Positions 21,137-32,983 of a DNA stretch of 40,247 nucleotides are shown one piece after another (positions within the stretch are counted from its first letter, which is position 1; every line of letters starts with the position of its first letter). The stretch comes from a virus. The translations under genes and the position numbers were made by a program. The notes under the pieces are model-generated. The model made no database searches and was not told the DNA's origin. It saw only the letters and a list, made by a program, of their open reading frames with translations. The stretch lies in IMG/VR virus record IMGVR_UViG_3300045988_055798; one strand, given 5' to 3'.

Positions 21137-21319
21137 TCAGGCAATCGCCGGAAGCACCGCCCGCGGGCAGCCATCCTCACCCATATAAAGGAATCCGGTT
21201 CGGCCATCCGAGAGGCGGATATGTATTGTCCCGTCCAGGGCGTTAATCTCGTCGATTGGGTAGCCGATATTCTCCATCGCCCAGCGCAGCAGGGCAGAAA
21301 TATTTGTGGTATTCAGCAT
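21137..21319 (-). CDS. Hypothetical protein (60 aa)
   Basis: GGAAGGAGGAAAAG RBS. Confidence 0.5.
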   Translation of the reverse strand: MLNTTNISALLRWAMENIGYPIDEINALDGTIHIRLSDGRTGFLYMGEDGCPRAVLPAIA

Positions 21320-21407
21320 TGACTTTTCCTCCTTCCAGCCCTAAAATAAGGGCAGATGTTCTTTCTCTTGCCGCCCTCTGGTCTCGCACACCGGGGAGCG
21401 GCGCTTT

Positions 21408-21758
21408 TTAATATAGCTCGATTGCAAAGCCATCTTTGATGAGCTTTGGGCGCTTGCCATTTACCTGCTCCGGCCTTATCCCGAGTTTGCTGACGACGCC
21501 GGCCATCGGGATCGAAAACCCGCCGGAATATCTCGACACAGCAAAGCCTTTTTTGCTGTCGGTGAAATGGAATAGCAGATACTTTCCGGCCTTGCCGATC
21601 AGGACTCGAGGCAATATGTTGGGGATACACTTTGCGGCGGCGGAACTCACATATAGGGCGGTGTTCGGGCTTGCCAGCTTCACGTATTGCTCTGTGACCG
21701 TCTTCTGGATTATCTCTTCGTCAGTGCCAATTTCGATAAAATCTAGGGTTTCATTCAT
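21408..21758 (-). CDS. Hypothetical protein (116 aa)
   Basis: Start at ATG 21758 (MNETLDFIEIG...). The Pro/Arg-rich N-terminal extension of the track ORF is rejected. Confidence 0.55.
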   Translation of the reverse strand: MNETLDFIEIGTDEEIIQKTVTEQYVKLASPNTALYVSSAAAKCIPNILPRVLIGKAGKYLLFHFTDSKKGFAVSRYSGGFSIPMAGVVSKLGIRPEQVNGKRPKLIKDGFAIELY

Positions 21759-21996
21759 TTTCGTTCCCTCCAGGTATTTCGATGACCGCCCACACATCGT
21801 CGATGCTCTCCGCGCCCTCCAGGCCGGTGATCTGGATGGTGAGCGGGCCGGTGGGCGTGGGGGCCGGGGTGGTGGTTGCTGTCGGGGGCTCAATGGCTGG
21901 CTGCTCCGGCTCCTGGTTCCAGATGATTTCAACTAGTACAACCAGCGCCAGCAAGAGAAACAGAGCCACAACGCTCGTAATCAGATAGCGGTTCAT
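21751..21996 (-). CDS. Membrane-anchored protein with Pro/Thr-rich linker (81 aa)
   Basis: MNRYLITSVVALFLLLALVVLV then PPTATTTPAPTPT. ATGA-coupled to the upstream mini-ORF. Confidence 0.5.
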   Translation of the reverse strand: MNRYLITSVVALFLLLALVVLVEIIWNQEPEQPAIEPPTATTTPAPTPTGPLTIQITGLEGAESIDDVWAVIEIPGGNENE

Positions 21997-24263: not shown

Positions 24264-24470
24264 TTATTGGGCTTTATCTTTGGTATCATGCTCGCTAAGA
24301 AGATCATCAACAGTGACACCATATAATCGAGCAATCTCAAGAAGTCTTTTGGCGTTTGGCCTAGTTACTCCGGTTTCCCATTGGTATACTGCGGCATCTG
24401 ATACACCTATATTTTTCATTACTTGACTTACAGAAAGCCCAGCCGAGATACGTGCATCACGGAATCCCAT
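24264..24470 (-). CDS. XRE-family HTH regulator (68 aa, Cro/CI-like)
   Basis: ISAGLSVSQVMKNIGVSDAAVYQWETG. GGAGGTG RBS. Confidence 0.8.
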   Translation of the reverse strand: MGFRDARISAGLSVSQVMKNIGVSDAAVYQWETGVTRPNAKRLLEIARLYGVTVDDLLSEHDTKDKAQ

Positions 24471-24498: not shown

Positions 24499-24527
24499 TT
24501 GACAATTCGATAGACTTAGCTTAATAT
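24499..24527 (+). promoter_or_regulatory. Rightward sigma-70-type promoter
   Basis: TTGACA, 17 nt, TAATAT. Confidence 0.5.
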
Positions 24528-24556
24528 AGGATATCATGGAGTATTATGGATGTCAA
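24528..24556 (-). promoter_or_regulatory. Leftward promoter for the XRE gene, interdigitated with the rightward one
   Basis: Minus strand: TTGACA, 17 nt, TATCCT. The two -10 boxes abut at 24527/24528. Confidence 0.35.
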
Positions 24557-24597
24557 TAACGAGAGGGGGCACTTAATCTTGGTGCCCCCTTTTTCTT
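24534..24597 (+). ncRNA. Candidate ~60-nt transcript from the rightward promoter to the shared terminator
   Basis: Predicted start about 24534. Ends at the hairpin 24565-24589 plus T-tract. Only a 7-codon ORF (MEYYGCQ) lies inside. Confidence 0.3.
24565..24597. terminator. Intrinsic terminator, probably bidirectional (ends the holin operon and the rightward short transcript)
   Basis: GGGGGCAC-ttaatcttg-GTGCCCCC followed by TTTTTCTT on the plus strand. An A-tract precedes it on the minus strand. Confidence 0.7.
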
Positions 24598-24599
24598 GC

Positions 24600-25082
24600 C
24601 TATTTACTTTCTCTCTGGTCACCGCCGCCCAGCTTGTCCCCCGCGCCGTCCACAGTGGACTCCAGGGCGGCGATGGCCTTGCAGAGCCATGCGGGTACAG
24701 GCGCACCGAGGGCACCGATGTTCTCCACAATGCTCCCCAGCTCGGTCATGATATACCAGACCAGCACTAGAACACTCACAAATACCTCATACTGGAAGGG
24801 CAGCTCCAGTGCCGGAATGTTGGCGAGGATCAAACCGATCACCCCGTCCAGAATGGCGGCCACCAGGACGGCCACCACGGCCCCCAGCTTGTGCCACAGG
24901 CCGTCCCTTGCCACCTTGGACGACCACTCCCCGGCCCGGAGGGCGGCGGCGGTGCCGGTGCCGTAGTCGAGCGCCATACAGAGCAGCCAGGCAAGCACCA
25001 GCCAGCCAAACCAGCCCCACAGGGCCGTCAGACCGCCCAGCACGGCGGCGACCGCCGCCTTGAATCCGTTGATATGCTCCAT
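24600..25082 (-). CDS. Holin (toxin-secretion/phage-lysis holin family, TcdE-like)
   Basis: 160 aa with multiple TM segments. LDYGTGTAAALRAGEWSSKVARDGLWHK motif. Confidence 0.8.
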   Translation of the reverse strand: MEHINGFKAAVAAVLGGLTALWGWFGWLVLAWLLCMALDYGTGTAAALRAGEWSSKVARDGLWHKLGAVVAVLVAAILDGVIGLILANIPALELPFQYEVFVSVLVLVWYIMTELGSIVENIGALGAPVPAWLCKAIAALESTVDGAGDKLGGGDQRESK

Positions 25083-27842: not shown

Positions 27843-28740
27843 TGCTTACCACTCCTTCCGCGACGGGGATAATGTGCTTCAAGACCACATTCGTGGTAAC
27901 AGGGATATACACGGTAGAGGACGTGAGGATATTCCCCTCTGCATCCAGCAGTTCCAGGGCGGTGATCTCTGTGGCCTGGGACGGCATGATGGTATAGGTG
28001 ACGGTCAGCTCCGACCCCTCCACGGTCTTGGTCAGTCCGGTAATCGCAACTGTTCCGTTGACCCGGGCGGAGGCCACATCGCCGCTGACGAAGTTCGCCA
28101 CACCGGCCAAGAGGGCCTGCTGGATGGATGGCGTCTCAGGCATCTTAATCACTCCCTCCGGGCCGTCGGTTGCGAAGGGCAGCCGCCCCAGCTCCCACGC
28201 CCCCAGCTTGTAGTTATAAATTCTCTGCGCGGACGAAATTATCTCGGAGAGCAGCAGCCCCGTCCGCACAAACGGGGCGTTGACCCACACGATATGCGCC
28301 GGTTTGATACGGTTGATGGTGAAAGCCAGCTCAGTGGCGTAGTTCTGGTTTTGGGCCGCGCTTTCGATATAAAGTGTGTAGTTTGGGTAGTCTACCGTGA
28401 CCTTCCATTCACCCGGCCCAATCAGCTCGTCCAGCTTTTGATAGAGGAATCCCAGGGTATAGGGCGGACGGGTAGAAATGCGGTTGAGCACGCGGGTCCT
28501 TCGGAATGCCAGGCTTTCCACCTGTGGGTTTGGTACAATTCGGAATACCTGCTCCCACATGCCAACCGCCCTCTCGTCCATCGTCTGGAAAAAGAAATTG
28601 TCAGCCACACCCACGATTTCCTCCGCCAGGGCCTCAAACTGCTGCTGTTCGGTCAAGCAGATCTGCTGATAGTCCAGCACCTCCCGGTACCACGGGGGCA
28701 ACAGGGACAGCAGGCTGGTATCCAGCTCAATTGGATTCAT
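27835..28740 (-). CDS. DUF2313 (XkdU/YmfQ, gpI-like) baseplate protein with C-terminal extension
   Basis: LLSLLPPWYREVLDYQQI...RRTRVLNRI... Confidence 0.7.
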   Translation of the reverse strand: MNPIELDTSLLSLLPPWYREVLDYQQICLTEQQQFEALAEEIVGVADNFFFQTMDERAVGMWEQVFRIVPNPQVESLAFRRTRVLNRISTRPPYTLGFLYQKLDELIGPGEWKVTVDYPNYTLYIESAAQNQNYATELAFTINRIKPAHIVWVNAPFVRTGLLLSEIISSAQRIYNYKLGAWELGRLPFATDGPEGVIKMPETPSIQQALLAGVANFVSGDVASARVNGTVAITGLTKTVEGSELTVTYTIMPSQATEITALELLDAEGNILTSSTVYIPVTTNVVLKHIIPVAEGVVSNG

Positions 28741-29848
28741 TCAGCGTCACCGTCCCTATCACGGGCACCTGCTGGGTTTCGCCCGTCTCCGTCAAGAGGA
28801 GATCTGCCGTACCGCCGTTGAGCTGCACGTTGGTGGCGTTGACCACGCCGGCCACCCCTACGATAGCGGCGGTAACCCTGGCCACGTACACATCGGCAGC
28901 GTAGGACACGTTGTTGGAGGACACGTTGGCGTCCCACCCCTGCCGCACACTGCGCAGATATGTCTCAATGGCCTGCTCCACCGGTTCCTGCACCTGTCCG
29001 ATGGCATGTCCGGCGGCCAGCAGGAGAGTGGCGGAGACATTCACCGCCAACTCTGTCGGGGCCACCGCCGTCACCTTTGCCCCGATAGGGGCCAAGCCCA
29101 GCCCCAGCCCCTGGTTGGGGGGCGGGTCGATGGCATTCTGCACCTTCTCCACCAGTGTGGATGAGGCAGGCAGGAAGTCCGCCCCCAGCACGGACAGCTT
29201 CACAGTGCCACCGCCGTTCCAGGTGGGGTATACCTGCACCCCGCCCACGCCGTCAATGGCGAGGACGTTCTGGCGGTAGTCGGCAATATTGCCGCCAAAG
29301 GGACGGTTATTGAGCGCCTCAATCAGCCGTTCCCGAAATGCGCTGTCGGTCTCCGTGTCGTCACCAGGCACCAGGATATCCGTAATCTGTGCACTGGTCA
29401 GCCCCGGGATGGCGGTAATCGGCAGGATGGGCCCGGTGTACTCGTTTCCGATGGCGCCGGGGGTCTCCGCGGCCAGCTGGTACTGGTTCCCCGTATCGGT
29501 TGCCGCCGTTACGGTAAAGTTGATTGAGCCCGCTCCGTTGATGGTGGAGAACCGGGCTCCAATGGGCACAGAGGTATTGAACACGCCCAGGCGTACCGCG
29601 GCGGAGGCCGGATATCGGGTCAGGCCGCCAATCACAGCCAGCATATCCAGGGAATCCCCCACTGCTGTCTGCACGAAGGCCGCCCGCTGTACCTGATCCA
29701 GGCTGAGATAGAACCCCGCCAGGGTGTAGGCCGCCGGAGAGATGGCCGTCGGGATGGGGGCCGTGTCCCGCTTGTCATAAGTATCGGGCACCCGGTCCAG
29801 CATCTCCTGACGGAGGCTCGCATAGGTCTCTTGAGTAAAGTCAATCAT
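28727..29848 (-). CDS. Baseplate J-like protein (XkdT type)
   Basis: 373 aa. N-terminal FTQETYASLRQEMLDRVP. Position and size fit. Confidence 0.8.
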   Translation of the reverse strand: MIDFTQETYASLRQEMLDRVPDTYDKRDTAPIPTAISPAAYTLAGFYLSLDQVQRAAFVQTAVGDSLDMLAVIGGLTRYPASAAVRLGVFNTSVPIGARFSTINGAGSINFTVTAATDTGNQYQLAAETPGAIGNEYTGPILPITAIPGLTSAQITDILVPGDDTETDSAFRERLIEALNNRPFGGNIADYRQNVLAIDGVGGVQVYPTWNGGGTVKLSVLGADFLPASSTLVEKVQNAIDPPPNQGLGLGLAPIGAKVTAVAPTELAVNVSATLLLAAGHAIGQVQEPVEQAIETYLRSVRQGWDANVSSNNVSYAADVYVARVTAAIVGVAGVVNATNVQLNGGTADLLLTETGETQQVPVIGTVTLNESN

Positions 29849-29861
29849 GTACTCACCTCAC

Positions 29862-29898
29862 AATAAAAAATCCCGCTGCCTCATACCGAGACAGCGGG
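29862..29898 (-). terminator. Strong rho-independent terminator abutting the baseplate-J RBS
   Basis: Minus strand: CCCGCTGTCTC-GGTAT-GAGGCAGCGGG (11 bp, one G-U pair) followed by ATTTTTTATT. Confidence 0.8.
29879..29895. repeat. Left arm of the 17-nt inverted repeat bracketing the cassette
   Basis: cctcataccgagacagc. Its reverse complement gctgtctcggtatgagg matches 32044-32060 at 16 of 17 positions. Confidence 0.85.
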
Positions 29899-29905
29899 AA
29901 GATGG

Positions 29906-30454
29906 TTATGCGGTTAGTCCCTTCGCACCGTCCATCCCCGGAAGACACATCTGTCCGGGAATTTGGCGGTTCAGGGAAACGGGAACCGGAATGTTCCAGG
30001 TGACGAACACGTCTCTTGCCATTGCGCCCACCTCCTGGGGCGTACTCCCCATGTCCAGCATCACCCGGCGGGTAACGCGAATCAGGTTTGCAATTGCGTT
30101 GGGGGATACTTCCGGGGCAAGTCGGGCGGGGGCTGTCAACTGCTCGCTCATCTTCTCGAAGGCCGTCACATAGGCGGCAGTGAACAGCACCCCCTTCTTG
30201 CCGGGCATTTTGTTGGCGATCATGTCACAACCCTTTCGGGTAATCAGGTAGCAGGGGAGTTCTCGGCCAGTTAAATCTTTATAGCTGGACTGAATGAAGA
30301 AATCACTGAGGGGGACTTCGCCCTCAGTAAGATACCCGGAATATGTACGGATACTTTTCAAAAGCTCGTTGTGGCTCCGCTCTACCATCCGCGCCACATC
30401 ACGGCTATCTACCACGTCCACGTCGTGGAAGTTGAAAACTTTTAGCTCGTTCAT
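29906..30454 (-). CDS. Rha-family phage regulatory protein
   Basis: Start at ATG 30454 (MNELKVFNFHDVDVVDSRDVARMVERSHNELLKSIR) after AAGGA. Confidence 0.7.
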   Translation of the reverse strand: MNELKVFNFHDVDVVDSRDVARMVERSHNELLKSIRTYSGYLTEGEVPLSDFFIQSSYKDLTGRELPCYLITRKGCDMIANKMPGKKGVLFTAAYVTAFEKMSEQLTAPARLAPEVSPNAIANLIRVTRRVMLDMGSTPQEVGAMARDVFVTWNIPVPVSLNRQIPGQMCLPGMDGAKGLTA

Positions 30455-30486
30455 TGATTCTATCCTTTCTACCAGTTGTTGTGCCC

Positions 30487-30687
30487 TCACAGCCCCAAAT
30501 AGAAGGTAAAGAGTCCACTAGCTACCCCGGCGGACTCCAGCCGCTCTTGGGCCAGCTCCTTTGCCTGTTTGCTGTCCAGCCTCGCCAGGGCGCAAGCGTC
30601 CGACTCGTAGTAGCTCTCCAAGTCCCGCATGGCCTCAATCGTGGCCGTCAGAATCTCCTGCGGAATCAGATACATTACTTCATTCAT
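30487..30687 (-). CDS. Hypothetical 66-aa protein
   Basis: ATG 30687 (MNEVMYLIPQ...) after GAGGAAA. Confidence 0.45.
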   Translation of the reverse strand: MNEVMYLIPQEILTATIEAMRDLESYYESDACALARLDSKQAKELAQERLESAGVASGLFTFYLGL

Positions 30688-30697
30688 GGCCGTTTCC

Positions 30698-31270
30698 TCA
30701 CGACCGGGCGGGAAGTTCACGTTCAACCGCCCGTTTTATGTCCGTGGCATCAAATACGGAATCAAAATACAACATGCGAAGTGTATCGCTGAGCGGTATA
30801 AGATACTCTGCACTCGTGAACCTCTCTATCATACCCCGTATTACTTCTATGGCGGCGTTCCGTTCTTTTACACGTTTCAGAAGTTCGTCCACAGATTTCC
30901 GTGGCGTTTCCACTTTAGGCGGCTCCGTCCGTTTGTTGAAGTAATTCCGCACAAGCTCCCGCTGCACCTTCCACGCCAGATCGTCCGTGAAGGACTTCAC
31001 CAGCATTAAGTAGCCGGTCTCGGTAATCAGGGTAACATCCATGCACTGTCTTGTATCCATCCCGCCGAACGCTGTCCGAAATTCGGACGCCGTTATTTTG
31101 AAGAAGTCGGTTCCCTCAAGAAACCGCTCCCGGTGGTCGTTGAAGCGCTTCCGGGCCGTACCGGGCGCTCTGCCGTGTACGGCGTCGATTTCCCGGAACG
31201 TAACCACCCTCTGGCCCAGATACTCTTTCACGGCCAGATTCTGGCCATTGACCGCCATATATTCGTTCAT
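30698..31270 (-). CDS. ORF6N-domain (KilA-N-related) antirepressor-like protein
   Basis: GQRVVTFREIDAVHGRAPGTARKRFNDHRERFLEGTDFFKI matches the ORF6N pattern. Confidence 0.8.
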   Translation of the reverse strand: MNEYMAVNGQNLAVKEYLGQRVVTFREIDAVHGRAPGTARKRFNDHRERFLEGTDFFKITASEFRTAFGGMDTRQCMDVTLITETGYLMLVKSFTDDLAWKVQRELVRNYFNKRTEPPKVETPRKSVDELLKRVKERNAAIEVIRGMIERFTSAEYLIPLSDTLRMLYFDSVFDATDIKRAVERELPARS

Positions 31271-31282
31271 AAAAACCTCCTG

Positions 31283-31311
31283 TTGTTTTTCCCAGAAGGC
31301 TGTGGCATAAT
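31283..31311 (+). promoter_or_regulatory. Antisense promoter, unit B
   Basis: TTGTTT, 17 nt, CATAAT with a TGg extension. Same geometry as unit A. Confidence 0.55.
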
Positions 31312-31317
31312 AGATTT

Positions 31318-31391
31318 GCCAAACCTTTTGGGTTGGGTGGCAGGGTGCTCGTTGTTCTCTTGGTCGGGAGAACGGGCACCCTGTTTTTATT
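31318..31391 (+). ncRNA. Candidate ~74-nt cis-antisense RNA, unit B
   Basis: From about 7 nt after the -10 to the hairpin CAGGGTGC..GTTCTC-ttggtcgg-GAGAAC..GCACCCTG followed by TTTTTATT on the plus strand. Confidence 0.5.
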
Positions 31392-31560
31392 CACCGAGTT
31401 CTTCGTCGATCTTTCGATTGAGCCATTCTGCTTTAGAGATTTGCAGTTCTTTTAGTTTTTGCTCAAACTGCTCCATCTTCTGACGTTCAATCTCGACCGT
31501 AAACGACTTAAACTTGATTCTCCGCTCTTTGAAGTACTCGGCCCTGCTCTCAGGTGCCAC
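31387..31560 (-). CDS. Ribbon-helix-helix protein, unit B (57 aa, Arc/CopG-like)
   Basis: GTG start 7 nt after AAGGAGG. (M)APESRAEYFKERRIKFKSFTVEIERQKMEQFEQKLKELQISKAEWLNRKIDEELGE. Shares the MAP start with unit A. Confidence 0.55.
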   Translation of the reverse strand: MAPESRAEYFKERRIKFKSFTVEIERQKMEQFEQKLKELQISKAEWLNRKIDEELGE

Positions 31561-31586
31561 ATCTTCACCTCCTTGTTACGGGCAAC

Positions 31587-31615
31587 ATTATATTATGTTG
31601 CGGGCAACAAGTCAA
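31587..31615 (-). promoter_or_regulatory. Consensus sigma-70-type promoter B with operator-like repeats
   Basis: Minus strand: TTGACT, 17 nt, TATAAT. GTTGCCCGCAAC and GTTGCCCGTAAC flank the -10. A/T-rich AAAATTTTAAAAA lies upstream. Confidence 0.65.
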
Positions 31616-31683
31616 GAGATTTTTAAAATTTTATTCTGTGCGGCGATGGTAATGTCCTGTCCGTTGATTGCTAGGGTGTTCAA
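31612..31683 (-). pseudogene. Truncated 5' remnant of a second ORF6N-type gene (23 codons)
   Basis: AGGAGG, 7 nt, TTG. MNTLAINGQDITIAAQNKILKIS-stop aligns with MNEYMAVNGQNLAVKEY of the intact gene, then runs into promoter B. Confidence 0.5.
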
Positions 31684-31699
31684 TCTAAAAACCTCCTGA

Positions 31700-31728
31700 T
31701 TGATTTTCCCGCGGAGGTCTGGTAGAAT
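31700..31728 (+). promoter_or_regulatory. Antisense promoter, unit A
   Basis: TTGATT, 17 nt, TAGAAT with a TGg extension. Confidence 0.55.
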
Positions 31729-31734
31729 AGATTT

Positions 31735-31808
31735 GCCAAACCTCCGGGTGTGGTGCATAAGGCAATCGGGTACAGCTTCCTACGGCGGGCCCGGTTGTCT
31801 TATTTTTT
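31735..31808 (+). ncRNA. Candidate ~74-nt cis-antisense RNA, unit A
   Basis: Shares the 5' GCCAAACCT with unit B. Ends at the hairpin AAGGCAATCGGG...CCCGGTTGTCTT followed by ATTTTTT. Confidence 0.5.
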
Positions 31809-31964
31809 GACCGCTTCAATCCCCTTACGAATCAGCTCAAGTAGAGAAAATCCACTCTTCCGTGTGAAGTCTTGAATCTCTGCTTTTTCTTTTGGAGTTA
31901 CCCTTATAAATAGCCGTTCGGTCTTAGGGTTATCGCTTTTCGGTCTTCCTTGTGACGGAGCCAC
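31800..31964 (-). CDS. Ribbon-helix-helix protein, unit A (54 aa, MobC/CopG-like)
   Basis: GTG start after AAAGGGGGTG. (M)APSQGRPKSDNPKTERLFIRVTPKEKAEIQDFTRKSGFSLLELIRKGIEAVKK. Confidence 0.6.
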   Translation of the reverse strand: MAPSQGRPKSDNPKTERLFIRVTPKEKAEIQDFTRKSGFSLLELIRKGIEAVKK

Positions 31965-31994
31965 CCAAACACCCCCTTTATTGTCCGCACATTA

Positions 31995-32023
31995 AATATA
32001 TATCGTACGCACAATAAAGTCAA
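31995..32023 (-). promoter_or_regulatory. Sigma-70-type promoter A with an inverted-repeat operator
   Basis: Minus strand: TTGACT, 17 nt, TATATT. TTATTGTGCG / CGGACAATAA inverted repeat spans the -10. AAAAAATTTTGGAAAA lies upstream. Confidence 0.6.
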
Positions 32024-32043
32024 GAGGTTTTCCAAAATTTTTT

Positions 32044-32060
32044 GCTGTCTCGCTATGAGG
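32044..32060. repeat. Right arm of the 17-nt inverted repeat bracketing the cassette
   Basis: gctgtctcgctatgagg. Lies upstream of the promoter A -35, between it and the gp25-like gene stop. Confidence 0.85.
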
Positions 32061-32084
32061 TTGTCAAGGTGCAATCTGGATAGG

Positions 32085-32495
32085 TCAGTTTAGAGTGACC
32101 TCCACACTGGTCTGCATCTCTCCATATACTGTGCTCACGGTGAGGGAGGCCCTCAACATATCCCCTTCCACGGCATACGTAAAGCCGGAGATCCCCCGCA
32201 CCCGGTCGTCCATTTTCAGCGCCTCGGTGATACGCCGCTGAAGTTCCGAGGCCACATACCCCGGGTCCTGCCCGATGAGCCCATCCCACTGCATCCCGGA
32301 GTAGGGGGAATAAATCTGCCAGCGGAACCGCTCCACGTTGAGAATGACTTCCACGGCCTGGCGGACGGACTGCCAGCCGTCGCACTCCCCCTGGATGCGG
32401 TTGGTTTCCTTGTTGATATACCACGTCCTGGAGGGCTGGGAGACGAAGGACACCCCGGCGGACAGGTCGATGGCGGATGTAGGTAAAGTCGGCAT
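32085..32495 (-). CDS. Baseplate wedge protein, gp25/W-like (DUF2634, XkdS type)
   Basis: 136 aa. SRTWYINKETNRIQGECDGWQSVRQAVEVILNVERF pattern. Confidence 0.7.
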   Translation of the reverse strand: MPTLPTSAIDLSAGVSFVSQPSRTWYINKETNRIQGECDGWQSVRQAVEVILNVERFRWQIYSPYSGMQWDGLIGQDPGYVASELQRRITEALKMDDRVRGISGFTYAVEGDMLRASLTVSTVYGEMQTSVEVTLN

Positions 32496-32983
32496 CAGGC
32501 TTCCTCCTCAAAAATCCGGGACAGGACGATGAACTTCTGCCCGTGCTGTACCCGCAGCAGGAGCACTCTGTCCCCCTCCTCCAGCCTGCGGTTCAGGATA
32601 ATAAAACCGTCCTTGACAGGCAGCTTCTTCCCGTCCTCCCAGCACACAATGTCCTCCCCCTGTAGGGTGGCGTCCGCCCCCTCAGAAACCAGAGCGTATT
32701 CCCCCAGGTAGGAGCCGTCCAGTCCCGTGGTGGTGGTGCCCGCCGAGTTGGCATGGGTGTGGGAGAGGGTCTGAATCCGGTGCCTGTGGGCCAGCACCGG
32801 GATTTTCTTCTCAATCACCGGCTCAGTGAGGCAGAGCTGCCTCCGTCTCAGGGGAGATGTGGCAGGGTTAATGGTAATCTCCAGCGGTTCTTCTCTGGTC
32901 ACCGTGCCCACCCGCAGGTCTGTTGGCTGCCCGGCGGCGGTGTTCTCCTGCATCATCTGGTACAGAACATCTTTCAGATCCAC
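32495..32983 (-). CDS. DUF2577 (XkdR-type) baseplate/spike-associated protein
   Basis: 162 aa. GTVTREEPLEITINP...GDRVLLLRVQHGQKFIVLSRI. Confidence 0.65.
   Translation of the reverse strand: MDLKDVLYQMMQENTAAGQPTDLRVGTVTREEPLEITINPATSPLRRRQLCLTEPVIEKKIPVLAHRHRIQTLSHTHANSAGTTTTGLDGSYLGEYALVSEGADATLQGEDIVCWEDGKKLPVKDGFIILNRRLEEGDRVLLLRVQHGQKFIVLSRIFEEEA

Follow-up and report, generated by a model that had tools for sequence, protein, structure and literature searches.

Introduction

Antirepressors decide when prophages wake up but, to our knowledge, almost nothing is known about how they stay silent in gut Clostridia and Clostridioides difficile. In the arc-sar-ant module of phage P22, a small ribbon-helix-helix (RHH) repressor gene lies directly upstream of the antirepressor gene and is co-transcribed with it, whereas a convergent antisense RNA of ~70 nucleotides (nt), transcribed from a promoter between the two genes, limits antirepressor translation (PMC2629481). 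In plasmid pMV158, the RHH autorepressor CopG is co-transcribed with the gene that it controls, and the intergenic antisense RNAII, with its intrinsic terminator by the RHH stop codon, has a target lying just before the translation signals and excluding them (PMC4485353). In plasmid pSK41, the ~83-nt antisense RNAI binds the leader well upstream of the region where translation is initiated (TIR), resulting in a stem-loop that sequesters the ribosome-binding site (RBS), a system reported to be confined to staphylococcal plasmids (PMC5703833). A 2025 review of phage small RNAs lists antirepressor control only by sar, c4 and 24B_1, all in Gram-negative hosts (PMC12197685). Here, we analyze a 40,247-nt stretch of viral DNA (IMG/VR record IMGVR_UViG_3300045988_055798, hereafter the window) in which two tandem cassettes, units A and B, centered on positions 31271–31808, each combine a small upstream gene, a predicted convergent antisense RNA and the start of a gene of the ORF6N antirepressor family.

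With moderate confidence, and on the strength of the modeling described below, each cassette appears to be a two-layer off-switch for the ORF6N-family gene. A literature search yielded no paper linking ORF6N with antisense RNA, and neither Rfam nor the searched literature contained a system matching this design.

Predicted antisense RNAs and the three-part leader

The genes around the cassettes are all on the minus strand, and each unit carries a promoter facing them on the plus strand. Antisense promoter A (31700–31728, TTGATT-17-TAGAAT with a TG extension) has a scanner score of 9/12; antisense promoter B (31283–31311, TTGTTT-17-CATAAT with a TGTG extended -10) falls under the scanner threshold because its -35 box matches the consensus at only 3/6 positions. 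Both promoters, with their 17-nt spacing and TG extension, are found in the sequence where the first-pass annotation, made from the sequence alone, had placed them. The predicted RNAs of ~74 nt occupy 31735–31808 (A) and 31318–31391 (B) of the plus strand, and each would consist of a small 5' hairpin, a terminator hairpin (31757–31803 in A, 31339–31385 in B) and a T-tract (TTTTTT at 31803–31808 and TTTTTATT at 31384–31391, respectively). Modeled as molecules of 75–76 nt, they fold with a dG of -38.1 kcal/mol (z -5.6) for B and -34.4 kcal/mol (z -3.6) for A.

The T-tracts overlap the stop codons of the small upstream genes (31387–89 and 31800–02). The minus-strand sequence following the hairpins is CCACCC or GCACCA, so that the hairpins would not stop sense transcription, and a sense-strand terminator was rejected given that no U-tract follows the hairpin. 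The combination of a hairpin with a T-tract on the plus strand only and over the RHH stop codon, as originally described, thus holds in both units; two details have to be corrected, namely, that the hairpin begins about 21 nt, not ~45 nt, past the predicted start, and that the two hairpins, described as sharing no sequence, are identical in 23/47 positions (about 49%). No plausible promoter further upstream would place the whole hairpin within a plus-strand RNA. An Rfam cmscan of 29800–32600 (E<=10) produced five sub-threshold chance matches, none of them on the plus strand of 31271–31808.

A perfect 74-bp duplex is possible between antisense RNA and mRNA. The computed duplex energy is about -160 kcal/mol for the cognate pairs and only -52 to -64 kcal/mol for the non-cognate pairs of A and B, a divergence that suggests cassette-specific, heteroimmunity-like control. 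The predicted 5' ends of the RNAs (31318 and 31735) leave the Shine–Dalgarno sequences (SDs; 31276–82 and 31692–98) outside the antisense RNA.

The minus-strand leader of each unit contains three complementary segments. In unit B, the 5' arm, or anti-anti-SD (CCCAAAAGGTTTGGC, 31318–31332), lies under the antisense RNA, the 3' arm, or anti-SD (CACAGCCTTCTGGG, 31291–31304), lies in the spacer of the antisense promoter, and the third segment is the SD of the ORF6N gene (CAGGAGG, 31276–82), followed by the ATG at 31268–70 and a coding sequence for 190 amino acids (30698–31270). In unit A, the 5' arm, an SD mimic (CCCGGAGGTTTGG, 31736–31748), and the 3' arm, or anti-SD (CCAGACCTCCGCGG, 31709–31722), occupy the same places relative to the antisense RNA and the promoter spacer, and the SD (31692–98) precedes a TTG start (31681–83) and a 23-codon ORF6N-A remnant, the SD and remnant together spanning 31612–31698. 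The complementary segments initially delimited at 31740–47, 31709–18, 31324–32 and 31291–99 and both SDs were verified base by base. The 3' arm of unit A pairs with its SD at -14.9 kcal/mol, and the anti-SD pairing of unit B, CAGCCTTCTGG with ACAGGAGGTTT, amounts to -13.1 kcal/mol. When the footprint of the antisense RNA is blocked, the minimum free energy (MFE) fold of unit B pairs GCCUUCUGG with ACAGGAGGU, and that of unit A pairs GACCUCC with GGAGGUU.

Homologous cassettes in Firmicutes phages

An nhmmer profile of units A and B retrieved only identical copies of unit A and four marginal matches, and blastn against GenBank phages gave no related cassette. Exact-core scans of viral and metagenome sequences likewise recovered invariant copies only, with no near-neighbor compensatory changes for an alignment-based covariation count. 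Homologous cassettes were therefore sought via the ORF6N protein combined with a geometry detector and, because the exact-core copies are invariant, complementarity was assessed by permutations of cognate versus non-cognate duplex energies.

The ORF6N protein fetched 80 viral loci (62 unique) and 37 loci from one-genome-per-species contigs. The detector calls a promoter with a score of 8/12 or more that is followed by a hairpin (-12 kcal/mol or below) and a T-run. It fires on the antisense strand upstream of the ORF6N homologues in 38/62 unique viral loci, compared with 11/62 for the sense strand of the same regions and 1 to 21 of about 60 control blocks. Among the genome loci, 16/37 are positive, with hosts from Oscillospiraceae, Ruminococcus, Eubacterium, Lachnospiraceae and C. 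difficile. Detector matches are also seen in 21/60 blocks located 600–1260 nt downstream of the ORF6N starts and in 15/62 far upstream (viral loci L004–L083); similar cassettes may precede neighboring genes such as Rha-type antirepressors.

The cassettes share a common layout without detectable sequence similarity. It comprises a small gene (usually RHH_1/CopG-like, sometimes helix-turn-helix (HTH), and absent in the C. difficile type), a hairpin that overlaps the stop codon of this gene and is preceded by an A-run, i.e. a terminator on the opposite strand, an inverted repeat 20–30 nt beyond the hairpin that brackets the opposite-strand -10 box, and an antisense -35 box (TTGAC/TTGAAA) located 16–18 bp from the -10 (17 in most cassettes). 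The lengths of the predicted RNAs cluster at 65–80 nt, and the antisense promoters of L008, L070 and L090 match the consensus at 12/12 positions. The geometry of the promoter and the hairpin with its T-tract is kept across the homologous cassettes, and their segments covary, as the first-pass annotation anticipated.

Two groups depart from the typical organization. The C. difficile-type cassettes (L046–L078, L094, L102) are AT-rich and lack a gene for a small repressor; their leader begins, at a consensus sense promoter, only about 10 nt ahead of the antisense terminator, and a 10-bp anti-SD pairing, CAUUCCUUAA with UUAAGGAGUG, adjoins the hairpin. A query of this type against GenBank phages matched antirepressor genes only, with no RNA annotated. 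In L008–L031, L084 and L086, a conserved extra segment with an extended -10-like sequence (for instance, TGTGGAATAAT or TGTTATGCT) separates the switch from ORF6N, with 95–126 nt from the antisense -35 box to ORF6N, and may be a second sense promoter; even at this distance, the 3' arm of these loci matches the TIR.

Covariation, strand and mutual exclusivity of the pairings

Positions, conservation, three-way covariation, strand and mutual exclusivity of the pairings are in silico observations, the last three being made on 19 sequence-independent cassettes. In the sense mRNA, R5 was defined as the 34 nt located 5' of the complement of the antisense -10 box, R3 as the segment from the -10 complement through the -35 complement, and the TIR as positions -18 to +4 of the first downstream gene. 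For R5 with R3, the cognate pairs average -20.7 kcal/mol, compared with -8.9 kcal/mol for the non-cognate ones, with the cognate partner ranking first in 17/19 cassettes; for R3 with the TIR, the values are -12.4 and -7.5 kcal/mol (permutation p<2e-5 in both cases, optimistic as are all the permutation p-values here, given that the cassettes share ancestry and their independence is overstated). Shuffled R3 sequences pair with the TIR at -6.1±0.7 kcal/mol, compared with the observed -13.1 kcal/mol. R5 and the TIR, both complementary to R3, show no cognate preference for each other in these cassettes (-6.1 versus -6.3 kcal/mol, p=0.6), which rules out a composition artefact. The changes between units A and B, originally read as compensatory from these two copies alone, accordingly extend to cognate-specific pairing of both kinds in all the cassettes combined.

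The specificity of R3 for the TIR is seen with adjacent TIRs (n=10, p<5e-5) as well as with TIRs at a distance of 63–126 nt (n=6, p=0.001). Two cassettes stand out: the 5' arm of L025 (AAAAUAGGCUAUG) matches the start region (AAAAAAGGCUAUG) at 12/13 positions, and R3 of L077 forms a 20-bp duplex with a TIR 63 nt away.

The distribution of G·U pairs identifies the strand. The sense strand is the more stable of the two in 13/19 cassettes for R5 with R3 (p=0.013) and in 15/19 for R3 with the TIR (p=0.005), so the pairings are structures of the sense mRNA rather than DNA operators or structures of the small RNA. The two pairings are in competition for bases of R3, a mean of 9.9 nt being common to both and at least 4 nt in 19/19 cassettes. 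Furthermore, 92% of the nucleotides of the 5' arm fall within the predicted antisense footprint and the 3' arm falls outside it, in agreement with the initial proposal that the antisense RNA covers the upstream element only.

The R3:TIR duplex pairs 7.8 of the 10 nt of the SD window and often the start codon as well. In partition-function folding, blocking the footprint lowers the accessibility of the TIR from 0.44 to 0.25 (Wilcoxon p=0.0008), with a decrease from 0.62 to 0.37 in unit B and from 0.40 to 0.24 in unit A. The proposed occlusion of the SD by the freed anti-SD is therefore reproduced in silico.

A further regularity involves the terminator hairpin, whose apical loop contains UUGG in 11 cassettes, with the mRNA loop complementary to it showing this motif in 4 more. 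The total of 15/24 cassettes compares with about 6% expected. The frequent form is a hexaloop, UUGGUC, closed by a C-G pair, and is present in unit B as TTGGTC at 31360–65. In antisense systems, a YUNR U-turn is known to enhance the rate, whichever of the two partners carries it in a recognition loop (PMC6562991), and the sequence of the loop suggests kissing-loop recognition. The motif is independent support for a function in RNA-RNA pairing.

Proposed mechanism

In the two-layer off-switch model, the first layer would be the RHH-type protein, expressed from a strong promoter with its own palindromic operators and repressing that promoter. The second layer would be a constitutive convergent promoter in the interval that separates the RHH stop codon from the ORF6N start, which would yield an RNA of ~74 nt with a terminator over the RHH stop codon. 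In the ON state, the 5' arm would pair with the 3' arm as the leader is transcribed, in a hairpin whose loop holds the complement of the antisense -10 box, leaving the SD and the start codon free. In the OFF state, the antisense RNA would pair with a stretch of the leader that begins at the RHH stop codon and takes in the 5' arm, probably nucleating at the UUGG U-turn loop of the terminator hairpin, and the freed 3' arm, which spans the antisense promoter spacer and the -35 box, would pair with the SD/start region and block translation. With the antisense promoter embedded in R3, the -10 and -35 boxes would at the same time be parts of the anti-TIR; in L080, for example, UUUCAA is paired with a UUGAAA that directly precedes the SD. 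The small RNA could mop up leaky transcripts as well as read-through from the late operon. Both the production of the RNAs and their action by refolding, as opposed to RNase III cleavage or transcriptional interference, are inferred from these models.

A broader generalization is put forward only tentatively: the cassettes could represent a widespread, previously unrecognized class of modular 'immunity' cassettes in Firmicutes phages (including those of gut Clostridia and C. difficile prophages), in which the antisense promoter lies within the anti-SD of the controlled mRNA, and the pairing segments diversify jointly as a heteroimmunity code that decides which resident prophage silences the antirepressor of which incoming phage. 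If the cassettes work as predicted, they would add an RNA layer to antirepressor control, extend the 'immunity I' idea of P22 and P1 to Gram-positive phages, and imply that the architecture of small Gram-positive plasmids (a Cop repressor plus a countertranscript) is also used by phages. The cassettes would further provide a compact natural case of antisense-triggered RBS sequestration with clear covariation rules, with uses in phage genome annotation, in predicting which co-resident prophages are cross-immune and as a riboregulator open to design.

Alternative explanations

The antisense RNAs might instead act through simple duplex formation, i.e. by decay of the RHH-ORF6N transcript upon RNase III cleavage, by steric hindrance beside the TIR or by convergent transcriptional interference, in which case the leader hairpin would be the mirror image of the target structure and the anti-SD pairing would be secondary. 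The perfect 74-bp duplex is compatible with this possibility, as are the homologues predicted to be closed even without the RNA and the precedent of pMV158 RNAII, which inhibits repB from a site immediately before the TIR, without any refolding being invoked (PMC4485353). We nevertheless regard it as unlikely: simple duplex formation fails to predict the cognate complementarity between the 3' arm and the TIR, including TIRs 63–126 nt away (p=0.001), or the location of the 3' arm outside the footprint while it shares bases with both partners. More radically, the plus-strand RNA might not exist, with the hairpins being elements that stabilize the 3' end of the RHH mRNA, sites at which this mRNA is processed or barriers to stray antisense transcription, and the hexamers being fortuitous. 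Consensus scans alone are weak evidence, the detector makes nine plus-strand matches in the 40-kb window, and control blocks fire in up to 21/60 cases. Chance, however, hardly accounts for a -35/-10 pair with 16–18 nt spacing and up to 12/12 consensus matches that recurs at a fixed place with respect to the hairpin and T-tract in sequence-unrelated cassettes, nor for T-tracts on the antisense strand only and tightly clustered RNA lengths, which makes the absence of such an RNA rather improbable.

The inverted repeats bracket a promoter element, and each cassette has its own divergent DNA-binding protein, so the repeats flanking the antisense -10 could be conceived of as DNA operators through which a cassette-specific protein regulates the antisense promoter, with no RNA switch involved. 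This appears highly improbable considering that the wobble bias favors the sense RNA strand, a third covarying partner, the TIR, is unexpected for an operator, and in the C. difficile type, the repeats are present although no gene for a small protein ends at the terminator; moreover, the evident operators at the RHH promoters (two copies of TGTTGCGGGCAACA and the palindrome at 31976–32019) are unrelated to the repeats. On the latter ground, the repeats were also rejected as operators of the RHH proteins themselves. A type I toxin-antitoxin module was rejected as well, because the upstream proteins are charged DNA-binding RHH/HTH types, not small hydrophobic toxic peptides.

Several observations weigh against the two-layer off-switch, beyond the shared ancestry of the cassettes. 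In every member, the antisense RNAs are model-based predictions, and the -35 box of unit B is poor (3/6). Unit A has neither the UUGG loop motif nor an intact target gene in the window. In L027, L077, L011 and L039, the MFE structure sequesters the TIR even without the antisense RNA; because these leaders are already closed, the switch would there have to be kinetic or co-transcriptional. In the L008–L031 clade, ORF6N lies a further 95–126 nt downstream, possibly with a promoter of its own, in which case only read-through transcripts would be controlled. With regard to the proteins, the antirepressor role of ORF6N is deduced from annotation only, and the RHH fold of small protein B is not demonstrable by the profile and structure comparisons described below.

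Small proteins, putative operators and the truncation of unit A

A small RHH-type gene lies directly 5' of ORF6N on the same strand, and the RHH assignment is supported for protein A and the homologues. Small protein A (54 amino acids, 31800–31964, minus strand) is a ribbon-helix-helix repressor candidate, with a match to Pfam NikA-like RHH of 26.1 bits, below the cutoff of 27, and to PHROG 876 ('transcriptional repressor'); its homologues have RHH_1 matches above the cutoff. Small protein B (57 amino acids, 31387–31560, minus strand), a putative RHH protein, has no Pfam match, falls into PHROG 3896 of unknown function and shows only a weak, although in-register, hhalign match to the RHH family of the homologous cassettes (probability 37%); its single-sequence AlphaFold model is a single long helix and is uninformative. 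Protein Data Bank sequence searches with small proteins A and B gave no match. The RHH genes originally placed upstream of each antisense RNA can thus be accepted for protein A and many homologues, with only the weak profile match speaking for B.

Both small genes are preceded by near-consensus sense promoters on the minus strand. Promoter A (TTGACT-17-TATATT, 10/12, 31995–32023) lies inside a 44-bp imperfect palindrome (31976–32019) that is probably the operator of protein A. Promoter B (TTGACT-17-TATAAT, 11/12, 31587–31615) carries two 14-bp palindromic operator-like sites, TGTTACGGGCAACA / TGTTGCGGGCAACA, at 31574–87 and 31596–609.

Units A and B are diverged tandem copies with 74% column identity and an identical 18-nt core around the antisense -10 box; a 17-nt core taken from this stretch occurs twice in the window, against 0.02 occurrences expected. 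An ORF6N start had been reported after each unit; it opens an intact gene after B and only the 23-codon remnant (31612–31683) after A. Cassette A is fused to the promoter region of cassette B ~11 codons into ORF6N-A, so that the array reads repressor-antisense-repressor-antisense in tandem and only the remnant of ORF6N-A is left. This junction also occurs in two independent gut-metagenome contigs (L125 and L132), so the tandem form is not an assembly artefact. Elsewhere, unit A precedes an intact ORF6N gene, namely, in three viral contigs (loci L001–L007) and in 10/12 human-gut metagenome contigs carrying unit A; the antisense RNA A region is invariant in 12 gut-metagenome contigs. In one metagenome contig (L128, ~position 114, minus strand), an antisense region the same as that of unit A is combined with a differing coding sequence for the C-terminus of the upstream small protein, a pattern that suggests a recombination boundary exactly at the stop codon/terminator.

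Genomic setting

The module is a promoter-to-terminator 'moron' inside the baseplate gene cluster of a contractile-tailed phage. In the order of transcription (minus strand), the sheath-initiator gene (32085–32495) comes first, before small protein A, and the cassettes and ORF6N (Pfam ORF6N, 5.4e-14; PHROG anti-repressor, 1e-41) are followed by an open reading frame for 66–79 amino acids, the Rha-family gene (29906–30451) and, last, the baseplate J gene (28727–29848). The terminator scan detected no sense terminator between the sheath-initiator gene and the cassette. A strong intrinsic terminator (29899–29871, minus strand; a 13-bp stem plus TTTTTTATT) ends the regulatory module before baseplate J and, given this terminator (29871–29899), late transcription across the baseplate cluster would require read-through or re-initiation.

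Two other plus-strand promoter-terminator pairs were noticed in the window. The first, at 21319–21412 (TTGACT-17-TAAAAT, ~57 nt, hairpin of -20.5 kcal/mol), sits between the minus-strand genes 21408–21932 and 21137–21319, such that the T-tract adjoins the stop codon of the upstream gene, and the SD/start of the downstream gene falls under the -35 box and the spacer; the layout resembles that of the ORF6N cassettes, but beside an unrelated gene for 60 amino acids. The second, at 24499–24599 (TTGACA-17-TAATAT and a strong terminator, predicted transcript of ~64 nt), is divergent from an Xre-type HTH gene (24264–24470, minus strand) and convergent with a membrane-protein gene (24600–25082, minus strand), and could, as far as the sequence goes, specify another small RNA or a micro-ORF.

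Comparison with known systems

The analogy with P22 arc-sar-ant, drawn in the first-pass annotation, is apt as logic, down to the location of the 'ant moron' among late structural genes (PMC2629481; PMC12197685), with a convergent RNA of similar size predicted here. Mechanistically, pMV158 CopG/RNAII and pSK41 RNAI are closer. The sar RNA pairs with the ribosome-binding region of ant, whereas the RNA predicted here comes no closer to the SD than 34 nt on its upstream side and would work via a released anti-SD. The present cassettes also differ from P22 in the family of the antirepressor (ORF6N), in the absence of a divergent Mnt-like gene and in their Gram-positive clostridial hosts; the proteins and the RNA are unrelated, and the RNA has no Rfam match.

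Two further phage RNAs come close. The c4 RNA of P1/P7, 77 nt long, prevents synthesis of the antirepressor and determines heteroimmunity, and OOP of phage lambda is a 77-nt convergent RNA over the 3' end of the upstream regulator gene (PMC12197685). However, c4 arises by processing of the same transcript and has its effect around the RBS, and OOP, which overlaps the coding sequence of cII, causes the mRNA of the upstream gene to decay.

The resemblance to Gram-positive plasmids goes further. As in pMV158, a co-transcribed RHH-type gene and an intergenic antisense RNA, here predicted, precede the controlled gene, and several upstream proteins in the homologous cassettes match RHH_1, the 'copG family'. 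In contrast to the predicted RNAs, RNAII is only 48 nt long, with a single-stranded 5' tail and one hairpin, and direct steric hindrance, without an anti-SD, has been proposed for it; pMV158 controls a plasmid Rep gene, not a phage antirepressor, and the target here is an ORF6N/anti-repressor protein in a tail-gene cluster, not a rolling-circle plasmid initiator. RBS sequestration of the pSK41 type is reproduced here in silico through covariation, shared bases and the drop in accessibility. However, pSK41 is a plasmid RepA_N replicon without an RHH partner, and its antisense promoter has not been described as lying within the anti-SD. In the attenuation systems of pT181 and pIP501, the countertranscript, bound to the leader as this is being made, removes an arm of the pre-emptor hairpin such that an alternative downstream hairpin forms, and pIP501 also has a small Cop repressor (PMC5703833); that alternative hairpin is a transcription terminator, whereas its predicted counterpart here has no U-tract and holds the SD and the start codon. 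Overall, by analogy, the design of the ORF6N cassettes combines features of P22 arc-sar-ant, pMV158 CopG/RNAII and pSK41 RNAI.

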